The notes beneath the pieces were generated by a model. It worked only from the letters and a program-made list of their open reading frames with translations, searched no databases and had not been told where the DNA came from. The position numbers and the translations under genes were made by a program. Positions 23,550 to 48,501 of a stretch of DNA of 64,000 bases are shown here, in pieces. How positions within the stretch are numbered: position 1 is the stretch's first letter; each line of letters begins with the position of its first letter. Source of the DNA: Deltaproteobacteria bacterium (GTDB taxonomy: Bacteria; Bdellovibrionota; FAC87; UBA2466); the NCBI GenBank assembly GCA_900299195.1, contig OMIX01000098.1:92342-156341 (forward strand), written 5' to 3'.

Positions 23550-23942
23550 CTAAAGTGAAATATGCTGTCGGACTAAGGCGCGTTCTAACTTTAATTGTTG
23601 TTTTTTGAAATCGCTCTCGCTCAAAGTTCCCATCAACGCTTGTTCAGCGCGCTTCTGAGCGGCTTGAGCTCTAGCTTTATCGATATCTTTCGACTCTTCT
23701 ACCGTATCGGCTAAAACCAAAACTTTGTTGTTCCGTATTTCAGCAAACCCATAGCTGACAGAAAATTTGCGCTCTTTTCCGTCTTTAACGAAGACAAGCG
23801 GACCCGTACTCAGAAGCGTCAATAGGTCGGTATGCCCATCTAAAACCTGAAGTTCGCCTTTAGCCCCAGGTAACTTAACGCTATCTGCAGGGGCTCCATC
23901 GACCAACTTCCTAGTTGGGGTAACAATGTCTATCTTCAACAT
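23550..23942 (-). CDS. atpC: F1 ATP synthase epsilon subunit
   Basis: 130 aa, positioned after atpD; N-terminal beta-sandwich sequence MLKIDIVTP... Confidence 0.8.
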   Translation of the reverse strand: MLKIDIVTPTRKLVDGAPADSVKLPGAKGELQVLDGHTDLLTLLSTGPLVFVKDGKERKFSVSYGFAEIRNNKVLVLADTVEESKDIDKARAQAAQKRAEQALMGTLSESDFKKQQLKLERALVRQHISL

Positions 23943-23945
23943 GAA

Positions 23946-25379
<1,434 letters not shown>

Positions 25380-25391
25380 TTAAAACAAAAT

Positions 25392-26276
25392 TTATTTCAT
25401 GGCCTCTACGCCACCGACAATTTCCATCAATTCCTTCGTAATCGCTGCCTGCCGAGCTTTGTTGTAAAGCAATGTGAGATCTTCGATCATCTCTGATGCG
25501 TTCTTAGATGCATTTTCCATCGCTGACATTCTGGCTCCGTGCTCACTGGCAACCGACTCCAGAACACAGCGGAAAAACTGCATGTAAAAATGTTTGGGCA
25601 CAATATCGTTAAGAATTTCTTCTTTGGAGGGTTCAAAAATATAATTTTTAAACCTCTCGTCTTCGCCCACTTTTAAAATACCAACCACACCCTCAGGCAC
25701 TTCCGTGGCGACTGGAATCAATCGTTCGACAGTAACCCGTTGTTGGATTGCTGACTTAAATTCATTGTAAACAAGATAAATCGCATCAAATTCTTCTTTT
25801 AAATAGGCTTCTAGAATTTCGTGGGCGATAGCAGACGCTTTTGAATAGGTTACTTTAGAAAGCAGCCCCTCGTGATAACTTGAAATCGTATATTTCTTCT
25901 TAAAGAAGTCGTGTGCCTTTTTGCCAATGACGTCTAAAGAAACTTCAATTCCTGCAGCTTCTTTGGTTTTAATGAACCTTTGTGCTTCTTTAAAAACGTT
26001 TGCATTGAATGACCCGCACAGTCCCCGGTCTCCCGCCACAATGATCAATCTGATCTTTTTCTCTTCTCTGGAAACGAGAAGAGGGTGCTGGATTCCTTCC
26101 CGCTGAAACAAAGACAACAGAATGGAGTAGATCCGATAGGCAAAGGGGCGCGTACTCAAAATTGCGTCTTGAGCTCTACGCAACTTGGCCGCAGCGACCA
26201 TTTTCATCGCCCGTGTGATTTGCCTGGTATTTTGTACCGAGCTAATGCGTTTTCGTATTTCTTTACGATCAGCCAT
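25392..26276 (-). CDS. atpG: F1 ATP synthase gamma subunit
   Basis: 294 aa; MADRKEIRKRISSVQNTRQITRAMKMVAAAKLRRAQ is typical of the gamma N-terminus. Confidence 0.9.
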   Translation of the reverse strand: MADRKEIRKRISSVQNTRQITRAMKMVAAAKLRRAQDAILSTRPFAYRIYSILLSLFQREGIQHPLLVSREEKKIRLIIVAGDRGLCGSFNANVFKEAQRFIKTKEAAGIEVSLDVIGKKAHDFFKKKYTISSYHEGLLSKVTYSKASAIAHEILEAYLKEEFDAIYLVYNEFKSAIQQRVTVERLIPVATEVPEGVVGILKVGEDERFKNYIFEPSKEEILNDIVPKHFYMQFFRCVLESVASEHGARMSAMENASKNASEMIEDLTLLYNKARQAAITKELMEIVGGVEAMK

Positions 26277-26288
26277 GAAACTCTCTCA

Positions 26289-27797
26289 TTAAGCGAAGCT
26301 TGCTCCAAACTCTTCCAATGCTTTGACTAACACTGGCTTGATTTGATCATCGATAGCTTTCTTGGTTTTAATATCTTCTAGCAACTTAGGATATTTTTGT
26401 TCAATGAACTCAAAAAGCCCCTTCTCGTAAGCTCCCACTCTAGCTGTTGGGAACTTGTCCAAATATCCGTTGGTTCCGGCGTAGATGATTACCACCTGTT
26501 TTTCTACAGAAAGGGGAACGTACTGGCCCTGTTTTAACAACGCCACCATGCGCTCTCCGCGAGCCAATTGGTCTTGAGTTGCTTTGTCCAAATCAGAACC
26601 AAACTGAGCAAAAGCTGCCATCGCTCGGTACTGAGCTAAGGAAAGTCGTAAGTTACCAGCGATAGATTTCATCGCTTTGGTTTGAGCGCTACCGCCCACT
26701 CGAGAAACTGAAAGACCTACGTTAATAGCAGGTCGAACACCCGAGTAGAAAAGGTCTGTATCCAAGAAGATCTGTCCGTCAGTGATTGAAATCACATTGG
26801 TCGGAATGTACGCAGAAACGTCACCAGCTTGAGTTTCAATGATAGGAAGAGCCGTTAAACTACCGCCACCTTCTTTATCACTCAACTTCGCAGCTCGCTC
26901 TAACAAACGACTGTGAATATAGAACACGTCCCCAGGATAAGCTTCTCGTCCTGGTGGGCGTCTTAATAATAGAGACAACTGTCTGTACGCAGCTGCTTGC
27001 TTGGTCAAATCATCATAAACAATCAGCGCATGTTTTCCATTATCTCGGAACCATTCCCCCATGGTTACCCCAGCGTAGGGGGCAATATATTGAAGAGGAG
27101 CGGAAGCGCTGGCAGTTGCAGAAACCACGATGGTGTAGTCCATAGCACCTGCAGCTCTTAGTTTATCGACTACGAGAGCCACGGTTGAATTTTTCTGTCC
27201 AATCGCTACGTAGATACAGAAAACGCCCTGTCCTTTTTGATTAATAATGGTGTCGATTGCTATCGCGGTTTTTCCGGTTTGGCGGTCACCAATGATAAGC
27301 TCTCGTTGACCCCGTCCAATCGGAACCATCGCATCGATCGCCTTAATACCTGTTTGAAGTGGTTCACGAACCGATTGTCGCTTCACAATCCCAGGAGCTT
27401 TGATTTCTACGTTTCTAAATTCTTTTGATTGAATGGGTCCCATTCCATCGATGGGTTGTCCCAAAGCATTGACTACTCTTCCAACAAGAGCTTCGCCAGC
27501 CGGAACTTGTAGAATTCTTCCGGTGCGTTTAACCAAATCACCTTCTTTTACAGTGGTCACTTCTCCGAAAACTGCAACCCCGACGCTCTCTTCGTCTAGG
27601 TTCAGAACTACGCCATAAAGCCCACCAGGAAACTCCACCATTTCTCCGGCCATGGCTCCTTGAAGGCCATAAATTCTGGCTACCCCGTCACCGACATTGA
27701 GTACGGTTCCAGTTTCTGCAACTTGAACCTCTTTATCAAAGTCTTCGATGCGCTTTCTAATAATCTCACTAATTTCATCGGCGCGAATTTGTTGCAT
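26289..27797 (-). CDS. atpA: F1 ATP synthase alpha subunit
   Basis: P-loop [11 protein letters not shown]; 502 aa. Confidence 0.95.
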
Positions 27798-27808
27798 GTT
27801 TCCTCCAA

Positions 27809-28351
27809 TTAACCCGAAATTAAATTTTCTTCGAAACTATTTAACCAGCCCACCAAAGAGCCATCGTAGGTTCTGCCTCCGGCGGTGGCTTTAATTCCAC
27901 CAATAAGAGCCGGATCTACTTTGTAACTAGCTTCTACTTTTTTTCCTAAAATCTTTTGAAATTTATCTTCTATTTTTTTCTTCTCTTCACTCTCCAAAGT
28001 AGTGGCTGTCTCCACTTGAAGAGCAATAACATTAGCTGATTCTAAAAGAATCAACTGAAGACGATCTGAAATAGCACTTAAATGATCGAGTCTCTTTGCA
28101 GATGATAAGGTTAATAAAACCTTCAATGCCTCTGCAGATAGTTTTGCTTTGGAAACAAGCTCTTCTACTACAGATCTTCTCTCGGCCTCAGAGTAGACAT
28201 CGCTGGTTAAAACTAAACTCAGCTCATTGTGCCCCTCTAAAAGAAACGCGAAACCCCTTAACTCAGTGATCAAACTGCGGATCCGCGACTCATCTTTAAG
28301 ATAGTCGAAAATTGCCCTTGCATATCTTTGTGAAACTTTATCTTGTGCCAT
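27809..28351 (-). CDS. atpH: F1 ATP synthase delta subunit (OSCP)
   Basis: 180 aa, positioned between atpF and atpA; OSCP-like sequence. Confidence 0.75.
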
Positions 28352-28820
28352 GACCTACCAAATCTACAAATTCTGTTACAAGCTTGTGCTTTTCCTGTGC
28401 GGGTAAATGTTCACCCAAATAGAGTTCTGCAAGTTCAACGCTTCTTTCAATAGCCTCTTTCTGCAGTCCTTGTTTAGCTTTTAAAATTTCTCCCGAGCTT
28501 AAAAGTTCAGCTTCTTTTTTGATTCGTTCCGCTTCATGTTTAGCTTCGGTTAAAGTTTTTTCTCGAAACCTGATTAAGCTAGCTTCAGAGTCTTTCTTGT
28601 CTTGCAATGCGTGAGCTTGAGCTTGATTCCAATTATTTTCCCAAGTAGACAGCTCTTCATGCGCATTTTTTGCCATCTGTTCTGCCTCTGAAATTAAATT
28701 TTTCACACCTTCTGACCGAGCAGCCATAAAACTTGCAAAGGGTTTTCTTCCAAAAAAAACAAAAATGAAAACCACAACACTGAAATTTAAGATACTAGCA
28801 ATGACTACGTGTGCTTCCAT
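28338..28820 (-). CDS. atpF: Fo ATP synthase b subunit
   Basis: N-terminal TM helix followed by a long charged coiled coil. 160 aa. Confidence 0.7.
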   Translation of the reverse strand: MEAHVVIASILNFSVVVFIFVFFGRKPFASFMAARSEGVKNLISEAEQMAKNAHEELSTWENNWNQAQAHALQDKKDSEASLIRFREKTLTEAKHEAERIKKEAELLSSGEILKAKQGLQKEAIERSVELAELYLGEHLPAQEKHKLVTEFVDLVGHGTR

Positions 28821-28822
28821 CG

Positions 28823-29356
28823 TTATCCCTGAACCACCGGACGATTATTTAGGTTTTTTTTTACCCCAACATCGACTCCGGAAATTTTAACTGTTTTTCC
28901 GACAAGCTTACTGGCAATTCTGCTTGAGAAATCCGAAATCATTGGAGTGAGTTCATTTCTCACCTGAGAAACTTCTGTATCAATTTGTTTTCTTATCTCT
29001 TCCAGTTTTTGAGCCGCTTGATCACGAGCAGCCTGCACAAGTTTAGTTTCTTCTTCTGATATTTTCTTTTTTTCTTCATCTAACCACAGGGCAGTTTTTT
29101 TGTGCTCTGTCTTAATAAAGTTTTCGTAATCCGATTTCAGCTGCCCAGCTTTTTTCTTGGCTTCTTCAGCTTCTTCTTTCAAACCGTGAGTTTTGTGTTC
29201 GCGTATATGAATCAATTCCATTAGCGGTTTAAAAACCAAAAGTTTCATGACCATAAAACTGGCTAGAAAAAGACCTAGCTGGATCAAAAACTCGATAGCA
29301 AATTGTCTATTTAATACCAGCCCTTCCATTACTTCCATGGGATCCCTCTTAAACAA
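28823..29356 (-). CDS. Fo ATP synthase b' subunit (second b-type subunit)
   Basis: A second b-like protein (TM helix plus charged helix) immediately upstream of atpF. Confidence 0.55.
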   Translation of the reverse strand: MFKRDPMEVMEGLVLNRQFAIEFLIQLGLFLASFMVMKLLVFKPLMELIHIREHKTHGLKEEAEEAKKKAGQLKSDYENFIKTEHKKTALWLDEEKKKISEEETKLVQAARDQAAQKLEEIRKQIDTEVSQVRNELTPMISDFSSRIASKLVGKTVKISGVDVGVKKNLNNRPVVQG

Positions 29357-29453: not shown

Positions 29454-29858
29454 TTAATTCGTCTTGGTTTGCCTAGTAAGACCGGGAAGGGGACCCAACA
29501 TTTTAGTTTTTCCATCAAACACTGCCCCTTCCTCAATCTGCAATATCGCGGTTTGAACTGTGCCTCGAACCACAGCTGGGGCTTGAATTTCCACTCTCTG
29601 GGTAGAATAAATATCTCCCGAGAAATGTCCTGAAATTACAACAACATCCGCTTCTATTTGACCAGTAACTTGGGCTTCATCACCAATGATCAAAATGTCC
29701 GGAGTAAAAATTTCTCCTTTAAAACTGCCATCTATTCTGGCCGTTCCTTCAAATTGGAGACGTCCCTCAAGATGACACCCTTTTTGAAGAACCACAGTAA
29801 CTTCGTGGCTTACTGAGGGAAGATCAAATGGATCCTGGCGGCGTTGAAACATTTTCAC
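29454..29858 (-). CDS. Bactofilin (DUF583 polymer-forming cytoskeletal protein)
   Basis: Beta-helical bactofilin repeat GTARIDGSFKGEIFTPDILIIGDEAQVTGQIEADVVVISGHFSGDIY. Directly downstream of parB. Confidence 0.75.
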   Translation of the reverse strand: MKMFQRRQDPFDLPSVSHEVTVVLQKGCHLEGRLQFEGTARIDGSFKGEIFTPDILIIGDEAQVTGQIEADVVVISGHFSGDIYSTQRVEIQAPAVVRGTVQTAILQIEEGAVFDGKTKMLGPLPGLTRQTKTN

Positions 29859-31812: not shown

Positions 31813-31830
31813 TTGTTCCACGTGGAACAA
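31813..31830. promoter_or_regulatory. parS: parS site (18-bp perfect palindrome TTGTTCCACGTGGAACAA)
   Basis: Perfect palindrome in the parA-rsmG spacer. The 16-bp core TGTTCCACGTGGAACA differs from the canonical TGTTTCACGTGAAACA at the symmetric positions 5 and 12. Confidence 0.7.
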
Positions 31831-31838
31831 AATTTAGA

Positions 31839-32474
31839 TTACTTTGTTCCACGTGGAACAAAGTTAAAGCTCTCTACTCTTCTAGGGCCACAATCCATGG
31901 GAAGCTCATAATAAAGCTCTCCACATTTTTGAAACTCTTTGGGTGGGACTAAAGCCTCGCTGCTTCCGCCGACATTAACAATGAGGGTGCTCCCTGAATT
32001 CATTCTTTTAGACATAAACTTAAAAAGCTCTTGGGGTGGCAATACAGCCCTAGCCAAAAACAATCCACTCTTTCGCTCCAACGGCATCTCTCCCATCAAT
32101 TTGATGTTTTCCAATTGGAGGGTTGTTAGAACAGCGGACAAGAAGGTTTGTTTTTTTAAACTTCTTTCATACAGAGTGACTTTGGCATCGGGATATCGAA
32201 TGCCATAAATAATTCCAGGAAATCCGGCTCCGGTTCCAAGATCATAAACGGGTCTTGCTGATCGGTAATTTTCAGCGAAGTCACAGATTGAAATACTATC
32301 CACATAGTGGCTGGCGAAGGATTTATCGATGCTTTTTTTAGAAACCAAAGCCATTCTTTCATTCCAGTTTTTTAAAACTGAAAAATGTTTTTCGTAAAGG
32401 CTGAGTTCTGTCTCGGTTAGGTTCTTAAGACACTCGAGTTGGTTCTGATGGTTTTTAAAATGCTCTTTCAACAT
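31839..32474 (-). CDS. rsmG: 16S rRNA (guanine527-N7)-methyltransferase
   Basis: 211 aa SAM-MTase with GidB-family motifs (YDLGTGAGFPGI). Sits in the conserved mnmG-rsmG-parA-parB array. Confidence 0.85.
   Translation of the reverse strand: MLKEHFKNHQNQLECLKNLTETELSLYEKHFSVLKNWNERMALVSKKSIDKSFASHYVDSISICDFAENYRSARPVYDLGTGAGFPGIIYGIRYPDAKVTLYERSLKKQTFLSAVLTTLQLENIKLMGEMPLERKSGLFLARAVLPPQELFKFMSKRMNSGSTLIVNVGGSSEALVPPKEFQKCGELYYELPMDCGPRRVESFNFVPRGTK
31843..31862. promoter_or_regulatory. parS: parS site (20-bp perfect palindrome TTTGTTCCACGTGGAACAAA)
   Basis: Second copy, 31 bp from the first, overlapping the last codons of rsmG. Confidence 0.7.
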
Positions 32475-34372
32475 GTGGCTTCAGAGGTCGGAGGTTTCTG
32501 CCTTAAATGAAATAGGAGAGCCGAAAGCGCAGCTGGGGTAACCCCAGAAATTTTTGCAGCATCCGCTAAAGTGTTAGGCTTAATCCGTTCCAACTTCTCC
32601 TTAATTTCGATAGAAAGCCCTGAAACAACCCCATATTTAAGCTCTTTAGGAATGGTCAAAGTCTGCAGCTTTTTAAGTCTCTCGATTTCTTGGGCTTGCA
32701 TGACAACATATCCTTCATACTTAACCTCGATCTCAACTGTGTCTGAAGTCTGCTGATCTAATGGGTGAGGGGGAGCAGCCTCTGATATTTGCAAGATATC
32801 CGACAACTCAAGCTCTGGCCTTTTCAACAATGAATCCAATGATTGTGCCTGTAACATCGGGTTTAGCCCCTTTGAAGCAAACAGTTGATTCAGTTTCTCA
32901 GTAGGTTTGACGAATGTTTTCTTAAGAAAAGTTTTTGTTACTTCTATCGAACGCTTTTTTTCTTCAAAGCTTAGACGCTCATTTTGACCCAAAAGCCCCA
33001 GACTAATTCCATAGTGGCTTAGCCGCATGTCTGCGTTGTCCTCTCGAAGGGATAAACGATATTCAGCTCTAGAGGTAAACATCCGGTAGGGCTCGTTCAC
33101 CCCGAGCGTAGTGAGGTCGTCAACCATGACACCAATATAAGATTCCGTTCTGGAAAGAATAAAAGGCTCTCTCCCCTGTGAGTATAGCGAAGCATTAATC
33201 CCCGCTAATAAGCCCTGAGCAGCAGCCTCTTCGTAACCAGAAGTTCCATTCACTTGGCCACCTAAGAATAGCCCTCTAATATGCTTGGATTCGAGAGAGG
33301 GATGAAGTTGCCTTGGATCGATACAATCATATTCGACTGCGTAGCCATGTCTGGCAATTTTCACATCTCTGCAGCCGGGAATCGTTCGGATAAATTGCTC
33401 CTGCACATCAGCTGGTAAACTAGTCGATATTCCGTTGGGATAAATCCAATTAGAATCTAGAGCTTCTGGTTCAAAAAACAATTGGTGCCGTCCCTTATCG
33501 GGAAATTTAACTACTTTATCCTCGATAGACGGACAATACCTAGGACCTACACCCTTAATTTCTCCGCTATACAAAGGCGAGCGATGAAGGTTCGACTTAA
33601 TTGCATGATGGGTTTCATTGTTAGTAAAGGTAAGAAAACAGGAAACCTGGGGAAGGGGAATTGAACTATCCCAGAAACTGAACCTACTGGGGGGATTATC
33701 ACCAGCCTGTTCTTCCATTTGAGAAAAGTCTATCGTCTCTGCTAGTAGCCTTGCTGGGGTTCCTGTCTTTAGTCTAAGGAGATCAAACCCGAGCTCTCTT
33801 AAACAATCTGAAAGACCCAAAGAGGGGGCCTCTCCAAATCTTCCCCCCTCCGATTTGTCAAAGCCCGTGTGCATAACTGCCTTCATGAAGGTTCCAGCGG
33901 TGATAACAACCGAGGAGGCACCGATCTCTTGAAAGTGGCCGTTCGCATCTTTAGCCTGAAGAGCTCTTATCTTCCCGTTCTCTAATAACAGGGTCTTAAC
34001 CTCTCCATGAAAAACTTCCAGGTTTTTAGTTTCCTTTATAACCCCCTGCATACGGAGGGCGTATTGTCTTTTGTCGGACTGACAACGTGAAGACTGAACG
34101 GCACTTCCTTTTCTTGTATTTAATCTCTTAAATTGTATTCCGGTGAAGTCTGCGTTTTTTCCCATCTCTCCACCTAGAGCATCTATCTCCTTAACTAATT
34201 GGCCTTTGCCAACCCCTCCAATAGAAGGATTACAGGACATTTCAGCAATTTTATCAGGGTTCATGGTGACCAATAGGGTAGAGGTTCCCATTCGAGCAGA
34301 AGCTAGCGCGGCTTCACACCCTGCGTGTCCACCACCAATTACAACCACATCAAAATGTTTCACGTGGAACAT
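32468..34372 (-). CDS. mnmG: tRNA uridine-5-carboxymethylaminomethyl synthesis enzyme MnmG (GidA)
   Basis: FAD motif FDVVVIGGGHAGCEAA. The likely start is MFHVKHFDVV at 34372; the ORF-track start of 34390 adds 6 aa. Confidence 0.95.
   Translation of the reverse strand: MFHVKHFDVVVIGGGHAGCEAALASARMGTSTLLVTMNPDKIAEMSCNPSIGGVGKGQLVKEIDALGGEMGKNADFTGIQFKRLNTRKGSAVQSSRCQSDKRQYALRMQGVIKETKNLEVFHGEVKTLLLENGKIRALQAKDANGHFQEIGASSVVITAGTFMKAVMHTGFDKSEGGRFGEAPSLGLSDCLRELGFDLLRLKTGTPARLLAETIDFSQMEEQAGDNPPSRFSFWDSSIPLPQVSCFLTFTNNETHHAIKSNLHRSPLYSGEIKGVGPRYCPSIEDKVVKFPDKGRHQLFFEPEALDSNWIYPNGISTSLPADVQEQFIRTIPGCRDVKIARHGYAVEYDCIDPRQLHPSLESKHIRGLFLGGQVNGTSGYEEAAAQGLLAGINASLYSQGREPFILSRTESYIGVMVDDLTTLGVNEPYRMFTSRAEYRLSLREDNADMRLSHYGISLGLLGQNERLSFEEKKRSIEVTKTFLKKTFVKPTEKLNQLFASKGLNPMLQAQSLDSLLKRPELELSDILQISEAAPPHPLDQQTSDTVEIEVKYEGYVVMQAQEIERLKKLQTLTIPKELKYGVVSGLSIEIKEKLERIKPNTLADAAKISGVTPAALSALLFHLRQKPPTSEATC
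34356..34371. promoter_or_regulatory. parS: parS site (TGTTTCACGTGGAACA: one canonical half, one variant half)
   Basis: Lies inside the first codons of mnmG (MFHVKH read from the minus strand), at the mnmE/mnmG junction. Confidence 0.6.
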
Positions 34373-34374
34373 TT

Positions 34375-35739
34375 TTACTTCCCAATACAAAAATCACTAA
34401 AAATACGGCCTAAAACATCGTCAACTTCGACTTTCCCTACCACATTTTCAAGCTGAACCATAATTTTTCGACTAAACTCAGCTAGGATTTCAGGGGGATA
34501 CCCTTTATGTAGTTGAGATTTCAATTCTTTTAGGATTTCGGTCACAGCCTCTAATCTGGCCGCTTGCACAGCAGTGGGTGTCGGACCTAAATGATCAATA
34601 ATCAACTTTGCTGCCGTTGATTCCAGGCTAGACCAAAATTCTTCCATGTTGGCGGAGTTAAAAACAGAACCCTCCACCGATTTGTCTTTTAATTGCTGAG
34701 GACTTTTTTTCCAATTTGAAAGGTCCATTTTGTTCCAGAAAATTAAGTGGGGAACACTTCCAAAGCGATCAAGAAGTCCCTGTTCCTGTTCTGTAATGCC
34801 CTGCGTTCCATCAACAACTAAAACCCAGATAGATGCACTAGATAAAAATGCGGATCCTAATTCGATCCCTTCTTGCTCAATAAAATTCTCGGTCGTTCTT
34901 ATGCCGGCCGTATCAGCAACCATCCAAGGACGACTCAATATTTCAATTTGTTCCTCGATGACGTCTCGAGTGGTTCCAGCTTCTTCCGAAACAATAGCTC
35001 GGTATCTACCTAACATAGAATTAAAAAGAGAGGATTTTCCGGCGTTAGGCCTTCCGACTAAAACAATTTTCGGCAAGATTTTACCGCTCTTAAACCTCGA
35101 GTATCTCTGAGTAATCTCTGAGCACTCATGAATAAGCTCTTCAATTTATTGATTAGCTAACTCCACTGCCGAGGAATACTCTTCCGAAAAATCAACGGCG
35201 GTATCAAGTATCGCCTGAATTTTGATGAGTCGTGATCTTAGATCTTCTATTTTCTTCTCTAGCCCACCATCTCTGCGGGAATAGACAGCTTGCAAATCCA
35301 CCGAATGTACAGCATTAAAAACATCCGCTAAATTCTCTAACTCTAAGGGAGATTGTTTTCCGTTGAGTAAAGCCCGGTAAGAAAACTCTCCCCGCTCCGC
35401 AGGCCTTGCCGACAAAGACAAGAGTTCTTTTTCCAAAGAATGAATGACTGCAACCGAACCATGACAATGAAACTCAATAGTGTCATCGCCACTATGGGAG
35501 TTGGGCCCCACAAAAGAAATTGCCATAATGTCATCGATTTTTTTTCCTGTCCGGGTATGCAGAACACCAAACCAGATATCGCGAATTTTCGATAGCTCTC
35601 TAGACTTTGGAGTAAATAGCTTTTCCGCAATTAAAAATGCCTTCGGACCCGAAAGTTTTACGACTCCAATGGCAGAGGGAAGTGTCCCAGTGGTAAGAGC
35701 AAAAATGGTATCTTCTAAACTTAAGTTCTCACGCAACAT
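34375..35739 (-). pseudogene. mnmE: tRNA modification GTPase MnmE (TrmE) interrupted by a single in-frame TAA at 35148-35146
   Basis: ORF 35739-35146 encodes the MnmE N-terminal domain (FALTTG...AIGVVKLSG). The same frame continues after the TAA into the G domain (GRPNAGKSSLFN) and the C-terminal CIGK. The uninterrupted frame is 455 codons, the canonical MnmE length. Confidence 0.6.
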
Positions 35740-37621: not shown

Positions 37622-37976
37622 ACCTGGCGGCGGAAATCAACTGCTTCTGAACATCGGAATAATCTAACAATTTCCATTCCTTGGATAAGTTGTCTCGGCC
37701 AATAATATTCAGATCTGTTTTGGGAAAGAGTTTAGCATTTTTTCTAAACGTCTCTCTAATCAGCCGTTTGATTCGATTCCTAGCCACAGCAGAACTTAAA
37801 ACCTTTTTGGAAATTGAAATTCCCAACCGGCCTTTTCCCTCTAAACCTAAAATGAACATGAAGGATTCAGTTTTAAACCTTTTAAAGGATTTAAACCTAA
37901 AGTCTTTTTTCTTCTTTAATCTCTTAGACTTAGAAAGCTTCTGACTGCGCTTCGTTCGATGGATTAAATCTTCCAA
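37593..37976 (-). CDS. rnpA: RNase P protein component
   Basis: Basic 127-aa protein with the RNR-like motif [13 protein letters not shown]. Sits between rpmH and yidD. Confidence 0.8.
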
Positions 37977-37987
37977 ACCAATGAAAA

Positions 37988-38137
37988 CTATTTGCCAGAA
38001 ATGGTTGCTACTAGCTTTTTACGCCCTTTTCTTCGACGTCTAGAAAGAAGAAGTCTACCGTCTTTTCGGCTCATTCGCTTAAGCCAACCGTGAGTTCTCT
38101 TTCTTTTTATCCGACTGGGCTGATATGTTCTTTTCAC
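37988..38137 (-). CDS. rpmH: 50S ribosomal protein L34
   Basis: Not in the ORF track because it is shorter than 60 aa. The minus-strand GTG at 38137 gives [49 protein letters not shown], a clear L34 sequence. Confidence 0.8.
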
Positions 38138-38432
38138 TTTAAACCCCTAACTAAATTAATACATACGTTTAAACTGCCGCATATTAGGGGTTCCTGCGTC
38201 CCGTGTCAAATTTCTTTCGATCTAGCAAGGTTTTTACTCTCTCAGATAGCCCCAATAAGCTTATCCAGGTGGCCTTTACCTATTTGTTTCGGTTCTCAAA
38301 CTTCAAAAAATAACTCGTCATCGATTTGTTTGTTTAGTTGTCAACAAAACTAATTCTTCTTTTTATCATGCTCTTTGTTGCCAAAATATTTTGGCTTTGC
38401 TAACTCACTCAGTTCGGCACGAAGTTTTGACT

Positions 38433-39734
38433 ATGTCATCAAATTCTTGGACTCAAATTAGAGAGCGATTGAAGGCGTCTTTGCCTGCTCATATTTTTTC
38501 TTCCCTGGTGGAGCCAAGCTCGTTTTTTGAGAAAGAAGACTCTTATGAAATTTCTTTCCCAAATCGCTTTACTAAAGAGAGTTTCGAAGAAAAGTGTTTG
38601 TCTCCTTTAAAAAACGCCTTAAAAACCCTTTCTCTTGATGCAAAACGCATTGAACTTCTTGTGGCGGCCTCTAACCAAGAAAGTGCCCAACAGACCTTTA
38701 TAGATCCCTCATCATTTAGCCGATTCGATCCTAAGTATCGGTTTGATACCTTTGTGATAGGAACCTCAAACCAGTTTGCCCATGCTGCTTGCCAAGCGGT
38801 CTCAAAACAGCCAGGGCAGTGTTACAATCCTCTGTTTATTTTTGGGGGTGCCGGCTTAGGAAAAACCCATTTACTAAGGGCGATTGGGTACGAGTTATCA
38901 AAAAATCAAAGCAATTTAAGAATCCTATTTTTGACGAGCGAAGCTTTTACTAATGAACTTATTCAGGCCATTCGTATCGATAGAATGCGAGAGTTTCGAG
39001 AGAAATATCGCTCGGGTTGTGATGTTTTGCTTCTAGATGATATTCACTTCTTGGCGGGCAAAGAAAGAACCCAAGAAGAGTTTTTTTACACTTTCAATTA
39101 CCTTCATGAGTCCAGAAAGCAAATCGTCATTACTTCAGACCGATATCCAAAAGATATCCAGGGACTTGAAAATCGACTGCAAACCAGGTTCGAATGGGGT
39201 TTGGTCGCCGACGTACAACCTCCTGAAGTCGAAACCCGTGTCGCCATTTTAAAAAATAAGGCAGAAGAACAAAAAATATCTTTACCGGATGACGTAGCCC
39301 ACTACGTAGCTTCTCATGTTACTTCTAACATTCGAGAACTCGAAGGATCTTTACACAGACTGCAAGCCCATGCGTCTTTAAACAACTCCTCGATCAATTT
39401 GGATCTGGCTCAACAGATCTTAAGAGACCTGGTTCCTCGACTAAAGCACGAACTTACTGCTGATGGAGTTTTGAAGTTAGTCGCATTAACCTTTGGGTTA
39501 AAAATCGCTGATCTAAAATCCAATAAACGAGCGAGAAATTTGAGCGAGCCCAGACAAATTTGCATGTATCTGCTGCGCAAACACTTGATGATGTCCTTGC
39601 CAGAAATTGGGGCCTTCATGGGTGACAGACACCACACTACGATTTTACATGGCGTCAATGAAATCATATCTCGATCTAAAACAGATCCCGAACTTGAGAT
39701 CAATATTTCAAAAATTGAAAGTTTATTTCGATAG
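38433..39734 (+). CDS. dnaA: Chromosomal replication initiator DnaA
   Basis: AAA+ Walker A GGAGLGKTHLL and a C-terminal DNA-binding domain. The likely start is MSSNSWTQIRERL at 38433; the ORF-track start of 38391 adds 14 aa. Confidence 0.95.
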   Translation: MSSNSWTQIRERLKASLPAHIFSSLVEPSSFFEKEDSYEISFPNRFTKESFEEKCLSPLKNALKTLSLDAKRIELLVAASNQESAQQTFIDPSSFSRFDPKYRFDTFVIGTSNQFAHAACQAVSKQPGQCYNPLFIFGGAGLGKTHLLRAIGYELSKNQSNLRILFLTSEAFTNELIQAIRIDRMREFREKYRSGCDVLLLDDIHFLAGKERTQEEFFYTFNYLHESRKQIVITSDRYPKDIQGLENRLQTRFEWGLVADVQPPEVETRVAILKNKAEEQKISLPDDVAHYVASHVTSNIRELEGSLHRLQAHASLNNSSINLDLAQQILRDLVPRLKHELTADGVLKLVALTFGLKIADLKSNKRARNLSEPRQICMYLLRKHLMMSLPEIGAFMGDRHHTTILHGVNEIISRSKTDPELEINISKIESLFR

Positions 39735-39840
39735 TTTTGGACTTGGTTTCTCTTTTTGCTTTGGGTCATAGCAAAAATGAAATTAAAAAGGCCAGGATCC
39801 TGTTTTTTTCTCTAAGTTGATATACGTTACTGTTGCCATA

Positions 39841-39998
39841 TGTGGATAAAAAGGTATGCTTTTTCTTTGGGGTAATGTTAATAACTATGTTGAAAACATT
39901 GTTAATTGTTTGTTAATTGTTTGTTGAAAACTTGTTGATAACTTTTTATCCACAGTTCATCCACAGCTTTTAAAAAGTTATCCACATCGTTATCCACA
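39841..39998. promoter_or_regulatory. DnaA-box cluster of oriC
   Basis: Perfect TTATCCACA 9-mers at 39841-39849 (reverse), 39946-39954, 39978-39986 and 39990-39998, plus TCATCCACA at 39957-39965. Also contains direct repeats GTTAATTGTTT x2 (39901-39922) and TGTTGAAAAC x2. Confidence 0.8.
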
Positions 39999-40052
39999 AC
40001 AGGATCGACAATGTTATTGATGACTTAACTGAGTTGTTAACATATTAACAAT

Positions 40053-40108
40053 GCTAATTACTACTACTATAGATCTATATATATATAGATAAAGAAAAAG
40101 ATAAGAGA
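40053..40108. promoter_or_regulatory. AT-rich DNA unwinding element candidate of oriC
   Basis: ACTACTACTATAGATCTATATATATATAGATAAAGAAAAAGATAAG, immediately downstream of the DnaA boxes and upstream of dnaN. Confidence 0.55.
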
Positions 40109-40128
40109 ACGGGGATTTCGGGGGATTC

Positions 40129-41283
40129 ATGAAATTGCAGATTTCGAAAAGCCAAATGTTGTTAGGACTCCAACGTGTACAAAACGTTGTTGAGAGAAGA
40201 ACAACGATGCCGATTTTGTCTAACGCTCTTTTAAAAACAGAAAAAAATGGTTTGTCTTTGTCGGCAACTGATTTGGAAGTCGGAATTCAGTCCGTTTTAC
40301 CTGCTGAAATCATGGAAAATGGTTCAATTACCGTCAAAGCTCGCAGTCTTTTGGATATTGTAAGAGAACTTCCGGATACAGTGATTCAGTTTCAGACTAA
40401 AGAAAATAATCGGTTGGCGATTAAAGCCAATAAGTCAGTTTTCAATATTGTGGGATTACCTGCTGAAGACTTTCCTGAGATTCCAAGTTTTTCCTCTGAA
40501 GAACACCAACAGTTTGTCAGAATGAACGGTCAAGCGGTCATGGCCATGTTAGACAAAACTTTATACGCCGCATCTACTGATGAGGCGCGTTACCATTTGA
40601 ATGGTGTCTATTTTGAAACCTTGGAAAATACAACAGCGGACGACCCAAAAGGAAAAAAAGTTTTTCGAATGGTGGCTACTGACGCTCATCGTCTATCTTT
40701 AGTCGATAATCCAGAGACTCTATTTGATGAAAATGCGTGGAAGCTTTTCCAAGAGGGAATTATTGTTCCAAGAAAAGGGCTAAATGAACTTCGAAGATTA
40801 CTGTCTGAGGGAAAAGACGACTTTTTTGTCACTATTAGAGGAAAGATGCTTTTTGTTAAAAGAGATAATATCTTTCTATCAATGAGATTAATCGAAGGTA
40901 AATATGCTGATTATCGCCGTATTATTCCTGATCAATCGATTAATACTATTACTTTAGACCGCGAAGCCTTTCTGGCATCGCTTAAACGAATTTCTTTGAT
41001 GTCATCGGATAAATCCCGTAGTCTTACGTTTAGTTTAACTCCAGGAGTTTTGCAGCTTTCAAGTCAAAGCCCAGAACTAGGAGATGCCAACGAAGAAATT
41101 AGTATCGATTATAGTGGCGATGAGGTCAAAATTGGATTCAACTCTCGTTACTTAATTGATGCTGTTTCTACGATGGAAGGTAAAAAGATTATCTTAGAAC
41201 TTCGTGGAAAACAAAATCCCGGAGTCATTCGATCTTCTGACGGCCCTAACCACACCAGTGTGGTAATGCCGATGAGAATCTGA
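40129..41283 (+). CDS. dnaN: DNA polymerase III beta sliding clamp
   Basis: 384 aa with the three-domain clamp pattern. Follows dnaA and oriC. Confidence 0.9.
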   Translation: MKLQISKSQMLLGLQRVQNVVERRTTMPILSNALLKTEKNGLSLSATDLEVGIQSVLPAEIMENGSITVKARSLLDIVRELPDTVIQFQTKENNRLAIKANKSVFNIVGLPAEDFPEIPSFSSEEHQQFVRMNGQAVMAMLDKTLYAASTDEARYHLNGVYFETLENTTADDPKGKKVFRMVATDAHRLSLVDNPETLFDENAWKLFQEGIIVPRKGLNELRRLLSEGKDDFFVTIRGKMLFVKRDNIFLSMRLIEGKYADYRRIIPDQSINTITLDREAFLASLKRISLMSSDKSRSLTFSLTPGVLQLSSQSPELGDANEEISIDYSGDEVKIGFNSRYLIDAVSTMEGKKIILELRGKQNPGVIRSSDGPNHTSVVMPMRI

Positions 41284-41325
41284 TCTTTTTAATAAACTTT
41301 TAAAAAATACTAATTAGAAATTTAA

Positions 41326-43757
<2,432 letters not shown>

Positions 43758-43758
<1 letters not shown>

Positions 43759-46274
43759 TGGAAACCACAGATTTACAGCTTAGTCAGGTCAGTATTGAAG
43801 ATCAAATGCGGGATGCGTACCTCGAATACGCAATGTCCGTGATCGTCGGTAGAGCTTTGCCCGATGTCAGAGACGGTATGAAGCCTGTTCATCGTCGTAT
43901 TTTGTACGCCATGTATGACATGGGAAATACTTACGATAAAGCTTATAAGAAATCTGCGAGAATTGTCGGTGACGTCATCGGTAAATACCATCCGCATGGG
44001 GATACTGCCGTTTATGAAACCATGGTTCGGATGGCCCAAGATTTCAGTATGCGGTACACCTTGGTGGACGGACAAGGAAACTTTGGTTCCGTAGACGGTG
44101 ATGCAGCGGCGGCAATGCGATACACTGAAGTAAGACTTGCTAAAATCACCAATGAAGTTTTAGCCGATTTAGAAAAAGAGACCGTCAATTTCAATCCAAA
44201 TTATGACAACTCTTTACAAGAGCCTGCGGTTCTTCCCACGAAAATTCCTAATTTGCTTGTGAATGGTTCCTCTGGAATTGCTGTGGGAATGGCTACTAAC
44301 ATTCCCCCACACAACTTGAATGAAGTGGTTGATGGGATCAAAGCGGTAGTGGCTAATCCATCCATTTCGATTTCGGAACTGATGCAAATTATTCCCGGTC
44401 CGGATTTTCCTACCGCCGGATTTATTTATGGCAGAAACGGACTGAAAGAGGCGTATCACACAGGTAAAGGCATTATTCATTTAAGAGCAAAGGCCGATAT
44501 CGAGGATGTGAAAAATGACAAACAACGTATTGTCGTTACGGAAATTCCTTATCAAGTCAATAAATCTAAGCTGATTGAAAGTATTGCTGAGTTAGTTCGA
44601 GATAAAAAAGTTGAGGGCATTTCTGATATCCGTGATGAATCGGATAGAACAGGAATGAGAATAGTTTTTGATTTGAAAAAGGGAGAAGATTCCAGAGTTA
44701 TTCTCAATCAACTTTACAAAAATTCCCAAATGCAAATTTCGTTTGGGATTAGCATGTTGGCTTTAGACCATCAGCAACCCAAACTTTTAAATTTAAAAGA
44801 ATGTTTAGTTGCTTTTCTACAACATCGAAAAGAGGTCGTCACAAAACGAACTGTTTTCGATTTAAGGAAAGCAGAAGAAAAAGCACACATTTTAGAAGCT
44901 TTAAAAAAGGCCGTTGAAAATCTTGATGAAGTCGTTTCCTTAATCAGAAAAGCGAGTAACCCGGCAGAAGCTCAAGAGAAGTTAATCGCCAAATTTAGCT
45001 TCACTGAAATTCAGGCTAAAGCCATCTTGGAGATGAGACTTCAAAGATTAACAGGCCTGGAACGTGAAAAGATCGTTGCTGATTACAACGAAACGATGGC
45101 CTTGATCGCAGATTTAAAATCGATATTGTCAGATGAAAAACGGGTTTTAGCGATCATTGAAACAGAGCTAGATGAAGTAAAAAAATCTTTCGGAGATCCA
45201 AGAAGAACAGAGTTTATTGAAGAACAAGAAGAGATGACCGATGAGGATTATATTGTTGAAGAAGAGATGGTCGTCACAGTTACCTACTCCGGATATATCA
45301 AGCGCTTACCCGTAGATGCCTATCGTTCCCAACGACGAGGAGGTAAGGGCGTTATTGGAGCGGCAACTAAGTCTGAGGATTTCATTCAAGATATTTTCGT
45401 TGCAAGCACACACGAAAACATTTTGTGTTTTACTGACCAAGGAAGAGTGTATTGGTTAAAAGTTCATAAGATTCCCGAAGCCGGTAGGGCGGCAAAGGGT
45501 AAGCCGATCGTTAACTTGTTGAATCTCACCACCAATGAACGGGTTCAAGCAGTTCTTCCAGTCAAAGAATTTAAAGAAACTGAATTTGTGACAATGGTAA
45601 CTCGACAAGGAACCATCAAAAAGACTTCGCTTGGGGCGTTTTCTCGGCCGATGAAAAAGGGAATTATTGCGATCACGACTGACGATGGCGACTCCTTGGT
45701 CGATGCAAAAGTCTGTAATGGAAGTAATCACATTGTTTTGGTCAGCAAATTTGGTCAAAGCATTCGATTTGAGGAACAAGATGTTCGGCCCATGGGTAGA
45801 ACTGCTAGGGGTGTGGCCGGCATGCGATTGGATGAAGGGGACATTGTGATCGGCATGGCAGTTGTGATGCCGGACGATAAAACAGCACAAGTTCTCACTG
45901 TGACTCAAAAAGGTTATGGGAAGCGAACGCTTTTAGACGAATACCGCGTTCAAGGTCGAGGCGGTTCCGGTGTGATTACGATGAAGATCACAGATAAAAA
46001 TGGACCGGTGGAAGCAGTTAGTCAGGTCAAAGACGAAGATGATCTTATTATTGCATCCGATCGGGGTAAGGTGATTCGAACTCGAGTTTCTGAAATTTCG
46101 GAGGTGGGTCGAGTGGCTCAGGGAGTGAGACTTATTTCCATGGATGACGGGGAAAGTGTAGGGGCTGTTGCAAAAATTGTTGAAAAGGAAGATGAGCACC
46201 CTGATCCCAAGGCTGCAGCCGTAGTTCCTGAAACAAGTCCTAAGACTGATGAGGGAACAGGTAATGCTAGTTAG
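43758..46274 (+). CDS. gyrA: DNA gyrase subunit A
   Basis: [23 protein letters not shown] with the active-site Tyr region, plus C-terminal beta-pinwheel repeats. 838 aa. Confidence 0.95.
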
Positions 46275-47048
46275 AGTTTTTTTTTAAGTCTTCTCGTCGT
46301 TTTTCTAGGGTGTACGCAACAAAAACAGGAGAAGTTATTAGAAGCCGCGGAGACTAAACTGACCGAGGGCAAATACTCGGAAGCTACTGAACTGCTTCGC
46401 AAGGTTATTTCTTTAAATCCAGAAAACAAACTGGCTGTTAAAGCAATGTTCAAGTTAGGTTTTACTTTAGAAACCTACGGGAGAGACTACGATGGGGCTG
46501 TTTTTAATTATCAGGAAGCCATTCGTTTAAGCCAAGACCCTGTTTCAGTGTATGAAATTCAAAAGCGAGTGGCTAATATCTTTTTCGAGCAGGGCAAAGA
46601 CATTGATAAGGCAATAGCCGCTTACAAGAAACTTATTTCATTTAACCCAAAAAGCCTAGAGCTCGACTTTTTTCAATTTCGAACAGCAGAAGCCTATTTT
46701 CGTCAGAATAATTTTGAACAGGCCAGAACCGAGTACCAGCTTATTTTAGAAAATTTTCCTAAAAGCCAATATATTGCAAAGAGCCGTTTTGAAATTGGAA
46801 ATACTTATTACATGGAGGGCAAGTATGACATTGCTCTCGAAGCTCTAAAGCAGGTAGGAAGATACCATCCCCAAACGGAATATGCAGTTGAAGCCGAGTT
46901 TTTAATTGCCCAATGTCTTGAACAAACACAGAAAGAGCAAGCTGCGATTCAAATTTACGAAAACCTCAAAAATCGATATTCGAATCCAAAAATCATCGAA
47001 TATCGAATTGATCAATTAAAGAAAAGGGTCAGGAAGGGGCCTAAATGA
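46264..47048 (+). CDS. TPR-repeat outer-membrane lipoprotein (BamD-like); the start is reachable only through a +1 or -2 indel in a T9 tract
   Basis: The frame of ORF 46446-47048 is open back to 46275. It encodes ...[14 protein letters not shown] (a signal peptide with an LxGC lipobox) but has no in-frame start codon. The ATG at 46264 is in another frame and joins the main frame if the T9 run (46277-46285) is T10 or T7. Confidence 0.45.
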
Positions 47049-47266
47049 TTAAGCTAGACGGCAAGAAAATTAGAATAGCGATGATGATGGGAAATGCAGT
47101 GATGACCAAAGCCATCATGATCGCTGCCGGATGGTATTTCGGGAGCAAACTGGACAAAAAATATGGTACGGAGCCCTATGGGATGGTTGGTCTGGTGATT
47201 TTAGCCATGATTTTAGGGGTATGGTACATCCTGAGGGTCGCCAAAAAAAATAATTTAACGGATTGA
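47045..47266 (+). CDS. AtpI/AtpZ-like small membrane protein of the ATP synthase operon
   Basis: 73 aa with two TM helices, immediately upstream of atpB. Its start overlaps the TPR gene stop. Confidence 0.5.
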   Translation: MIKLDGKKIRIAMMMGNAVMTKAIMIAAGWYFGSKLDKKYGTEPYGMVGLVILAMILGVWYILRVAKKNNLTD

Positions 47267-47280
47267 TACCCGAAATTAGG

Positions 47281-47335
47281 GGGTTAATAGTTAACGATCA
47301 ACCCTGTTGACAGGGTTAATAGTAAACGATCAACC
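47281..47335. repeat. Two 23-bp direct repeats GGGTTAATAGT(T/A)AACGATCAACC flanking a TTGACA hexamer upstream of atpB
   Basis: Copies at 47281-47303 and 47313-47335, with TTGACA at 47307-47312. Each copy contains the inverted repeat GTTAA-TAG-TTAAC. Confidence 0.5.
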
Positions 47336-47431
47336 GGTAAATTTTTTGAATTACCTAATTGATTGAATCTTTATTGAAATATCAAAACATTGGTTGTATG
47401 ACAGGGTGTTCAAATTGGGAGTTATTAAAGC

Positions 47432-48160
47432 ATGCAAAGTCATGGTTCAGCACATCATGGTCCTGAAAGCTGGTTAACTAAGCTTCCTATACTTCCGCAG
47501 GATCGAGCTTGGGAAAGTGTTAATGGTGCGATTCTTGTATTTGTATTTATTTGCCTAGTTTCATGGATAGTAAACAGGGTAATTAAAGGAAAAATCGCAG
47601 AAAACGTGGTTCCTAGGGCCAAAATTGGACTTTTTTCGGTGGTCGATTTGTTGGTTGAAGGGCTTTACAATTTGATTGTTGGAATTGTTGGACATCATTA
47701 CGGTGCTGACGCCTTTCCTTTTATTGCCTCTGTTTTTATTTACGTTCTTCTTAACAACCTTTTAGGGTTATTGCCTCTTTCGGCTTCTCCAAGTTCCTCT
47801 TTCCCTATAGCCTTCGCTTTAGGGTTATCCAGCTTTGTTTTTTACAATTGGATGGGAATTAAGGCCAACGGAGTGGCTGGTTATGGTAAGCATTTTTTGA
47901 TGGGTCTTGGGGTCTTTGGGGTTCCGATTGCTGCTTTCGAGTTAGTCTCACATGTGATTAGGCCTTTTACTTTGGGATTACGGTTAAGAACCAACATGCA
48001 TATTGATCACATGTTGGCTGGGGCATTTGCTGACCTTTGTAAATGGATTGTTCCTGTTCCGTTGTTGCTTTTTGGAGTAGTGGTCTGTACGATACAGGCC
48101 TTTCTTTTTGCGGTTTTGACAGCTGTTTATGTACAGATGGCAACTGAACACGAAGAATAA
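47432..48160 (+). CDS. atpB: Fo ATP synthase a subunit
   Basis: 242 aa polytopic protein with the conserved Arg region LGLRLRTNM. Confidence 0.9.
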   Translation: MQSHGSAHHGPESWLTKLPILPQDRAWESVNGAILVFVFICLVSWIVNRVIKGKIAENVVPRAKIGLFSVVDLLVEGLYNLIVGIVGHHYGADAFPFIASVFIYVLLNNLLGLLPLSASPSSSFPIAFALGLSSFVFYNWMGIKANGVAGYGKHFLMGLGVFGVPIAAFELVSHVIRPFTLGLRLRTNMHIDHMLAGAFADLCKWIVPVPLLLFGVVVCTIQAFLFAVLTAVYVQMATEHEE

Positions 48161-48180
48161 CTTTTTTTAGGAGGTAAGGT

Positions 48181-48501
48181 ATGAAGTTAATCAATATGTC
48201 TAAGTTGGCGTTAATCGGAATGTTCATCTCCTCAGCAAGCGTATTTGCAGAAGAAGGTGCTCATGCAGTAGCTACTGGTGGAGCCGCTGGCCCATTAGCA
48301 GTTGGTTTGGCTATGGCTTTAGCAGTTATTGCTGCAGCGACAGCCCAAGGTAAAATTGGTACAGCTTTTATGGATGGCGTTTCCAGAAATCCTGGAGCTC
48401 AAAAATCCATGTTCGTTCCATTGATTCTTTCCTTGGTTTTCGTCGAAACCTTGGTGCTTTTTACCTTCCTAGTAGCTCAAAGCTTACTTGGAAAATTCTA
48501 G
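48181..48501 (+). CDS. atpE: Fo ATP synthase c subunit with an N-terminal signal-like extension
   Basis: The C-terminal 75 aa form a typical c-subunit hairpin (GAAGPLAVGLAMALAVIAAATAQG ... LVFVETLVLFTFLVA). It is preceded by about 30 aa, MKLINMSKLALIGMFISSASVFAEEGAHA. Confidence 0.85.
   Translation: MKLINMSKLALIGMFISSASVFAEEGAHAVATGGAAGPLAVGLAMALAVIAAATAQGKIGTAFMDGVSRNPGAQKSMFVPLILSLVFVETLVLFTFLVAQSLLGKF

Follow-up and report, generated by a model that had tools for sequence, protein, structure and literature searches.

INTRODUCTION

In Bdellovibrio bacteriovorus HD100, the chromosomal replication origin (oriC) is the 232-bp spacer between dnaA and dnaN (Makowski et al. 2016; PMC5124646). 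This origin (i.e., BdoriC), which was mapped by electrophoretic mobility shift assay, dimethyl sulfate footprinting, P1 nuclease assay, and replication initiation point mapping, contains eight DnaA boxes, four GAT trios that a short GC-rich spacer separates from box 1, and a stretch of approximately 55 bp that is unwound (PMC5124646). Here, we describe the dnaA-dnaN spacer of an uncultured member of the Bdellovibrionota, which lies within a 64,000-nucleotide stretch of contig OMIX01000098.1 (the window; it covers only part of the replicon, and all positions are those of the window). On the basis of its sequence, this spacer (39735-40128) is very probably the single (i.e., monopartite) chromosomal replication origin of the genome. 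The original prediction for this DNA had placed oriC in the same spacer and had referred to the location reported for B. bacteriovorus; the latter is an experimentally mapped location (PMC5124646), and the former is borne out by the clustering of DnaA boxes, the least stable DNA of the window, a switch in G+C skew, nearby parS-like sites, conservation among relatives, and a layout resembling that of B. bacteriovorus. The spacer represents a known kind of origin, at the place expected for the phylum and composed of known elements.

The oriC of Escherichia coli carries arrays of low-affinity DnaA sites that are spaced one helical turn apart and form two opposed sub-arrays. Our comparison with these DnaA-oligomerization arrays draws on passages of PMC10325909. 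In Bacillus subtilis, the basal unwinding system (BUS) of incC consists of DnaA boxes 6/7, DnaA-trios, and an AT-rich region (PMC6669920, PMC8287927, PMC10721633). The BUS scaffold of B. subtilis reads ACTTATCCACAAATCCACA-GGCC-CTACTATTACTTCTACTA, and the corresponding string of HD100 reads TTTTCCACG-CCC-(CTA)5 (PMC8287927 supplement). Bipartite origins that flank dnaA are also known (passages of PMC8235120; PMC5124646), as are cyanobacterial origins located by dnaN with dnaA elsewhere (e.g., Cyanothece 51142; PMC4674748).

RESULTS

DnaA boxes and a probable unwinding element in the dnaA-dnaN spacer

The spacer and its flanking genes carry the following features.

38433-39734, plus strand: dnaA (the open reading frame opens at a TTG at 38391; the annotated 433-aa protein starts from the ATG at 38433)
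39735-40128, no strand: dnaA-dnaN intergenic spacer (394 bp; 69% A+T)
39841-39849, minus strand: lone perfect DnaA box at the left edge of the module, with the conserved ATATACGTTACTGTTGCCATATG before the box
39876-39941, minus strand: weak inverted DnaA-box array of six units (top-strand TGTTNANNN)
39946-39998, plus strand: strong boxes directed towards dnaN, i.e., 39946 (TTATCCACA), 39957 (TCATCCACA), 39978 (TTATCCACA), and 39990 (TTATCCACA)
40034-40050, plus strand: weak co-oriented box pair, i.e., TTGTTAACA (40034-40042) and ATATTAACA (40042-40050), offset by 8 bp
40058-40069, minus strand: four DnaA-trios (top, TTA CTA CTA CTA; bottom, 3'-AAT GAT GAT GAT-5')
40055-40105, no strand: AT-rich unwinding element with AGATCT (40071-40076) and (TA)6 (40076-40087)
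40129-41283, plus strand: dnaN (beta sliding clamp; TIGR00663, E value of 1e-89)

We refer to the segment from approximately 39841 to 40105 as the origin module. All perfect copies of the box TTATCCACA in the window (39841 on the minus strand; 39946, 39978, and 39990 on the plus strand) are located in a 158-bp stretch of it (39841-39998), while 0.70 copies are expected in 64 kb from base composition (P of approximately 3e-10 for the four, corrected for the number of windows). The original prediction had counted these four perfect boxes correctly, but it listed one near-perfect box where two boxes with one mismatch are present (n = 2; TCATCCACA at 39957 on the plus strand and TTATCAACA at 39933 on the minus strand). 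When up to two mismatches were allowed, the 300 bp from 39801 contained 10 matches (mean, 1.06; best window outside the spacer, 5). The DnaA-box cluster is therefore well beyond chance. After the strong boxes comes a degenerate GGATCGACA at 40002, followed by a poorly conserved linker that leads to the weak box pair.

The cluster adjoins an easily melted element. According to nearest-neighbor energies, no other 50-bp duplex of the window is as unstable as positions 40055-40105 (dG of -48.3 versus a mean of -66.3; z = 4.55), and the region also ranked first in instability with 20- and 30-bp windows. This duplex overlaps the AT-rich block that had been predicted just before dnaN (40053-40108), for which we confirmed an A+T content of 79% (compared with 69% for the entire spacer). 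The unwinding tract is followed by the ribosome-binding region of dnaN, and in 12/12 related loci the least stable 30-bp window lies 47 to 83 bp upstream of the dnaN start. The palindrome AGATCT directly after the trios is conserved in 10/11 genomes of the family and is duplicated in two of them (L005 and L006). It would be reminiscent of how the E. coli 13-mers begin and of the 6-mer known as the "ATP-DnaA box."

The arrangement resembles that of B. bacteriovorus HD100, which belongs to the same phylum and shares the neighborhood rnpA-rpmH-dnaA-oriC-dnaN-gyrB-gyrA. In both, the boxes on the dnaA side are inverted, those on the dnaN side point towards dnaN, and the last box is followed by GAT trios (CTA on the top strand) and then by an AT-rich element before dnaN. 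As described in PMC5124646 for B. bacteriovorus, the proposed origin occupies the dnaA-dnaN spacer and has its GAT trios and unwinding element on the side of dnaN. A B. bacteriovorus-type locus (L081) was retrieved with the sequence of published primer P-2; it holds primers P-2 and P-7 together with published boxes 1, 4, 5, 6, and 7, and its dnaA-side boxes are inverted. It reads TTTTCCACG-ccc-CTACTACTACTACTA-AT-rich-GTG(dnaN), i.e., (CTA)5 trios, and its BUS string is identical to that reported for HD100. The two origins nevertheless differ in several respects. Their sequences are unalignable, and the DnaA proteins are 40% identical; the spacer is 232 bp in HD100 and 394 bp here. Two boxes lie inside the 3' end of dnaA in HD100 (PMC5124646), while no box with two or fewer mismatches is present between 39143 and 39841 of the window. 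Four perfect boxes and a six-unit weak array with fixed spacing characterize the present origin. The trio-proximal box has two mismatches in HD100 and three here, with a spacer of 3 nt and 7 nt, respectively, and recF, which separates dnaN from gyrB in HD100, is missing from that position here.

Strand-independent skew switch and parS-like sites

The cumulative GC-skew minimum within the 64 kb is located at 38 to 40 kb. Since gene orientation also changes near the spacer, we calculated the skew at third codon positions (GC3 skew), expressed it on the plus strand, and split it by gene strand.

Left of the spacer: GC3 skew of -0.091 for plus-strand genes and -0.119 for minus-strand genes
Right of the spacer: GC3 skew of +0.091 for plus-strand genes and +0.113 for minus-strand genes

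The sign changes in the same way on both gene strands and is therefore no by-product of coding-strand bias. Even the flanking genes follow it (dnaA, -0.057; dnaN, +0.079). The switch within the 64 kb runs from negative to positive, which is the polarity of an origin and not of a terminus.

Three parS-like 16-bp palindromes (0.44 expected; no strand) were also identified, 5 to 8 kb to the left of the spacer.

31814-31829 and 31845-31860, no strand: TGTTCCACGTGGAACA, at the rsmG-parA junction
34356-34371, no strand: TGTTTCACGTGGAACA, at the mnmG/mnmE junction

As context, these palindromes would mark an origin-proximal domain.

A weak box pair, DnaA-trios, and conserved DnaA residues

The trios, which are absent from the original prediction, are the most informative element for the mechanism. 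They begin 7 nt (ATGCTAA) past the weak box pair. A BUS as described in PMC8287927 has three or more successive trios that share a central A on one strand and lie no farther than 16 bp from a co-oriented box; the four trios here are separated from ATATTAACA by 7 nt and from TTGTTAACA by 15 nt, in the orientation seen in B. subtilis and HD100. The sequence ACTACTACTA occurs once in the window and is invariant in 11/11 genomes. The two boxes of the pair each have three mismatches to TTATCCACA. In an alignment of the relatives (A1), GTT.T.AAC.T.T.AACA is invariant across the pair, and the orthologous pair box is TTATCAACA or TTTTCAACA in seven relatives. We propose that the weak pair would serve as the anchor that loads DnaA onto the trios.

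The geometry of the pair is the same as that of B. subtilis boxes 6/7 (TTATCCACAAATCCACA). As in the B. subtilis BUS, a co-oriented box pair with an 8-bp offset is followed by a short spacer, trios on the same strand, AT-rich DNA, and dnaN, and distal boxes are located upstream in either orientation. The differences are that oriC is bipartite in B. subtilis; that box 6 is a perfect consensus there, while the proximal pair is weak here and the strong boxes are 36 to 100 bp upstream; that there are six trios in B. subtilis and four here; and that the spacer is GGCC there and ATGCTAA here.

The residues for trio capture and oligomerization represent a further similarity. The dnaA product (TIGR00362 DnaA, E value of 1e-149), which is 100% identical to P0001/MFM8313987.1 (433 aa), aligns over its full length with B. 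subtilis DnaA from the BUS cryo-electron microscopy structure 8BTG. The equivalents of N187, I190, K222, E223, and R264 are identical in this alignment; PMC10721633 connects these residues with contacts to the backbone and the trios and with the arginine finger. The protein thus keeps the residues for single-stranded DNA/trio binding and oligomerization.

The domain IV signature of the protein reads RHHTTI, with a His (39630-39632) at the position occupied by Asp in the aligned chains of E. coli (Asp433 in our own numbering), B. subtilis, Aquifex aeolicus, and Mycobacterium tuberculosis. The signature motif was matched in 121/130 proteins, with 13 His, 107 Asp, and one Asn. The His carriers are P0001 to P0012 (at least 81% identical; the clade of the window) and the fragment P0104. 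No correlation exists between this change and the TTATCAACA boxes, since relatives with Asp share those boxes. An altered DnaA specificity was therefore rejected as the cause of the TTATCAACA-type boxes described below.

A conserved module that stays with dnaN

The same module of approximately 260 bp was found directly upstream of dnaN in 10 related genomes (L001, L003 to L007, L052, L082, L084, and L085), which together with the window make up the 11 genomes compared. The genomes nearest to the window are metagenome-assembled genomes of Bdellovibrionota/Pseudobdellovibrionaceae. Fourfold-degenerate sites of dnaN are saturated (26 to 46% identity to the window), while the identity to the window is 77 to 97% for the weak array and 79 to 92% for the box pair and trios. 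This level of conservation indicates that the module is under strong purifying selection. Four NNNTCCACA boxes are present at equivalent positions in 10/11 genomes. The lone box is less widely conserved; it is found at approximately -278 to -280 from the dnaN start only in the clade of the window (L001, L084, and L085). Similarly, the ATATACGTTACTGTTGCCATATG sequence together with the lone inverted box (39817-39860) is conserved only in these three genomes, and more distant relatives carry CCATA(C/G)-like repeats at the relative position of the lone box.

The distance between dnaA and dnaN ranges from 331 bp to 1.5 kb across the relatives, while the distance from the module to dnaN is constant (in the genomes checked, L082 included, the dnaN start follows the end of the last strong box by 129 to 149 bp). 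L082 (contig CAZRVZ010000042.1, 10001-17141) represents an extreme case, in which 4.7 kb separates dnaA from dnaN and the intervening minus-strand genes (i.e., those for a peptidase M14, an aldehyde dehydrogenase, and an amino-acid permease) are unrelated. Since L082 keeps the complete module at dnaN despite this separation, and has no box cluster at dnaA, it seems that the module as a whole is passed on together with dnaN and not with dnaA. In L002, neither dnaN nor a box cluster was found within 4 kb of dnaA. Cyanothece 51142 provides a precedent for a module located by dnaN and not by dnaA, although the cyanobacterial boxes are of the type TTTTCCACA and the window keeps dnaA and dnaN adjacent.

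A phased array of weak boxes

The six units of the weak array start at 39876, 39888, 39900, 39911, 39922, and 39933 (spacing of 12, 12, 11, 11, and 11 bp). They are reverse-complement boxes of the TTATCAACA type with one to four mismatches and, when read in the direction of the box, share the consensus AG-TTATCAACA-A. The original prediction had noted short direct repeats among the boxes as extra, unexplained motifs. These repeats are present where it had placed them (GTTAATTGTTT at 39901 and 39912; TGTTGAAAAC at 39888 and 39922; nowhere else in the window), but they can be explained as parts of the phased array (i.e., units 3-4 for GTTAATTGTTT and units 2 and 5 for TGTTGAAAAC). The spacing, including the 13 bp from the last unit to the first strong box, is identical in 10/11 genomes; the exception is L007, which keeps the register although one of its units does not match the search pattern. 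In alignment A1, which involved no search pattern, each unit keeps TGT and the A at box position 4 and varies at positions 1 to 3 and 5, with a systematic C-to-A change at position 6. Except for position 6, this variation fits the tolerance pattern of DnaA boxes given in PMC5124646. The sequence TGTTGA.AACTTGTTGATAACT is invariant, but for one position, in eight aligned sequences, with the 2-bp spacers included.

The weak array may represent a second DnaA sub-complex or an initiation-threshold device, if the low-affinity arrays in the oriC of E. coli are taken as a model. Both origins combine strong anchors with weak sites that are approximately 11 bp apart and arranged as opposed sub-arrays, with an unwinding element at one end. 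They differ in that the E. coli origin is not next to dnaA, in that 13-mer repeats are lacking from the window origin, and in that the binding of ATP-DnaA to the weak sites is putative here. The GATC count of the spacer (3 in 394 bp versus approximately 1.7 expected; 279 per 64 kb) shows no enrichment, and Dam/SeqA-type control was rejected on this basis.

Among the alternatives considered, the one that survives best concerns the array itself, which might bind another lineage-specific regulator (e.g., a factor linking initiation with the predatory growth phase, the predatory lifestyle of these bacteria being presumed) or a bending protein of the integration host factor (IHF) type. All of the units in 11 genomes (65/65) carry A at position 6, although the search pattern demanded it, and no perfect inverted box is present inside the array in any genome. 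The flanks are conserved as well (AG before and A after the unit), as is the nearly invariant TGTTGA.AACTTGTTGATAACT with its 2-bp spacers, and the reverse complement of the array holds TATCAACAAGTTA, which would fit the IHF core consensus WATCAANNNNTTR. Moreover, further factors that control initiation in Bdellovibrio are stated to await identification (PMC5124646). However, the positions that are invariant in alignment A1 (TGT and A, i.e., box positions 9, 8, 7, and 4) are among the conserved DnaA-box positions of PMC5124646, the variable ones (1 to 3 and 5) are those at which DnaA boxes are tolerant, and the units share the 11- to 12-bp register of the strong boxes. In addition, TTATCAACA is annotated as a DnaA box elsewhere (PMC4674748), and the B. 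bacteriovorus-type origin has inverted boxes on the dnaA side that are footprinted by DnaA. We therefore consider it unlikely that the array binds a protein other than DnaA. It is similarly improbable that it is a dedicated control device, i.e., either a platform for a further regulator of the origin or a sensor of an ATP-DnaA threshold through which initiation would be confined to the growth phase. A CtrA-like TTAA-N7-TTAA match inside GTTAATTGTTTGTTAATTG was rejected, since inspection of L005, L006, L007, and L052 showed no conservation of the match in these genomes; we read it as a by-product of the 11-bp repeat.

Regulatory and bipartite alternatives

The box cluster could also serve only DnaA-dependent regulation (e.g., autoregulation of dnaA-dnaN or a dnaN promoter) or titration, with the origin located elsewhere. 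In other bacteria, some DnaA-box clusters away from the origin do have regulatory or titration roles. The lone box at 39841 is overlapped by a weak promoter-like match (TTGCCA-16-TATGCT), and our view is limited to 64 kb of the replicon. However, consensus scans of the spacer for promoters and terminators gave chance-level results (five promoter-like matches versus 5.1 expected), and the strand-independent sign change of the skew falls exactly at the spacer. Moreover, the least stable DNA of the window and the invariant trios are next to the boxes, and a promoter would not need them; parS sites are close by; and in B. bacteriovorus, the origin was mapped experimentally to the homologous spacer. 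Regulation or titration as the sole role is therefore highly improbable. A dnaA terminator or a dnaN promoter as the main feature was likewise discarded (the scans were at chance, and the predicted fold of 39725-39830 is ordinary, with a z value of -0.54). A noncoding RNA in the spacer was rejected on the basis of an Rfam scan of 37900-40400, which produced no match in the spacer and one sub-threshold chance match inside dnaA.

A bipartite origin of the B. subtilis/Helicobacter pylori type, with a second essential sub-region in the rpmH-dnaA spacer (38138-38432), has precedents (passages of PMC8235120; PMC5124646) but is very unlikely here, since that region contains only two matches with two mismatches (38261 and 38338 in 295 bp, close to the background of 1.06 per 300 bp), boxes with at most one mismatch are missing from the 500 bp ahead of dnaA in the relatives, whose weak matches there vary in position, and dnaA with its upstream region is 4.7 kb from the module in L082. 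A box cluster upstream of dnaA was thus found neither in the window nor in the relatives. Three one-mismatch boxes in the first 220 bp of gyrB (41337, 41484, and 41547; minus strand) were rejected as a second cluster and represent a coding-sequence effect, because all of them derive from V-D-N tripeptides of GyrB.

Gene neighborhood

The gene order around the origin is rnpA-rpmH/dnaA-[module]-dnaN-gyrB-gyrA, with parAB and parS 5 to 8 kb away. The genes before dnaA encode L34 (rpmH), RnpA, YidD, YidC, and MnmE on the opposite strand, with those for MnmG, RsmG, ParA, and ParB farther left and those for AtpB and AtpE farther right. A bactofilin gene (29454-29858) adjoins parB. Open reading frames of at least 100 aa are all on the minus strand from 15110 to 38137 and on the plus strand from 38391 to 48501. 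The switch in gene orientation that the original prediction had assigned to the spacer therefore exists, with minus-strand genes on the left and plus-strand genes on the right, but it is located at the rpmH/dnaA junction (38137/38433), approximately 1.6 kb to the left of the box cluster, and dnaA, although to the left of the proposed origin, is itself a plus-strand gene.

The spacer between dnaN and gyrB (41284-41331) is only 48 bp and lacks recF. The same recF-less order was found in L082, L084, and L085, while the order in B. bacteriovorus is dnaA-dnaN-recF-gyrB (PMC5124646). The ATP synthase genes probably lie on both sides of the origin, with one part on the left arm (23550-29356; minus strand) and the other on the right arm (47432-48501; plus strand). 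The latter comprises atpB and atpE; the left-arm reading frames have sizes that would suit the other subunits, and their orthologues in L082 carry ATP-synt_B and OSCP domains. The mnmE gene (34375-35739; minus strand) contains a single in-frame TAA at codon 198 (35146-35148; ...ELANQ*IEEL...). Its frame is otherwise open over 455 codons, and the relatives carry one unbroken gene of 451 to 454 aa. The stop may reflect a nonsense mutation or an error in sequencing or assembly, or it may be read through.

DISCUSSION

The elements of the spacer suggest the following course of initiation. DnaA would first bind the four strong rightward boxes (39946-39998) and the lone box at 39841. ATP-DnaA would then cooperatively fill the six inverted TTATCAACA-type boxes (39876-39941), which are one helical turn apart, as well as the weak co-oriented pair (40034-40050) on the right. 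From this pair, a DnaA-ATP oligomer would extend onto the bottom-strand trios (3'-AAT GAT GAT GAT-5'; 40058-40069) and stretch the strand that carries them, and the adjoining AGATCT-(TA)6 tract would open. Finally, the replicative helicase would be loaded, and forks would depart in both directions.

Several observations weigh against this interpretation or against parts of it. From the letters of the DNA we infer that DnaA binds and occupies its sites at this locus, that it unwinds the DNA, and that replication starts here; the dependence on ATP, the position of the opening, and the function of the left array are likewise predictions. The window covers 64 kb of the replicon, and a global skew minimum elsewhere remains formally possible. 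The weak boxes always carry A at position 6, which PMC5124646 names as one of the positions that phyla share, and their assignment to DnaA is therefore inferred. A distance of 59 bp separates the trios from the nearest strong box, and the trio spacer is 7 nt and not GC-rich, compared with 3 to 4 GC-rich nucleotides in B. subtilis and Bdellovibrio. Furthermore, the search rule for the BUS (i.e., two or fewer mismatches to TTATCCACA in the better box; PMC8287927) is missed by one mismatch, while 7/11 genomes of the family pass it at the orthologous position (one to two mismatches). Since both proximal boxes have three mismatches, we suggest that the region would work like a BUS, and strict membership appears marginal in this genome.

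Compared with the original prediction, the present analysis explains the repeats, identifies the trios and the BUS layout, and ties a conserved module of approximately 260 bp to dnaN. Our general understanding of bacterial initiation is left unchanged. The spacer would fix the replication origin of an uncultured Bdellovibrionota lineage, which is of use for the orientation and annotation of genomes and for estimating growth rates from coverage (i.e., peak-to-trough ratios). The layout of the Bdellovibrio origin (i.e., opposed arrays, trios, and an unwinding element before dnaN) would thereby be extended to a second family. As a regular and strongly conserved origin with weak trio-proximal boxes, it would provide a natural test of the degeneracy of the BUS anchor boxes.

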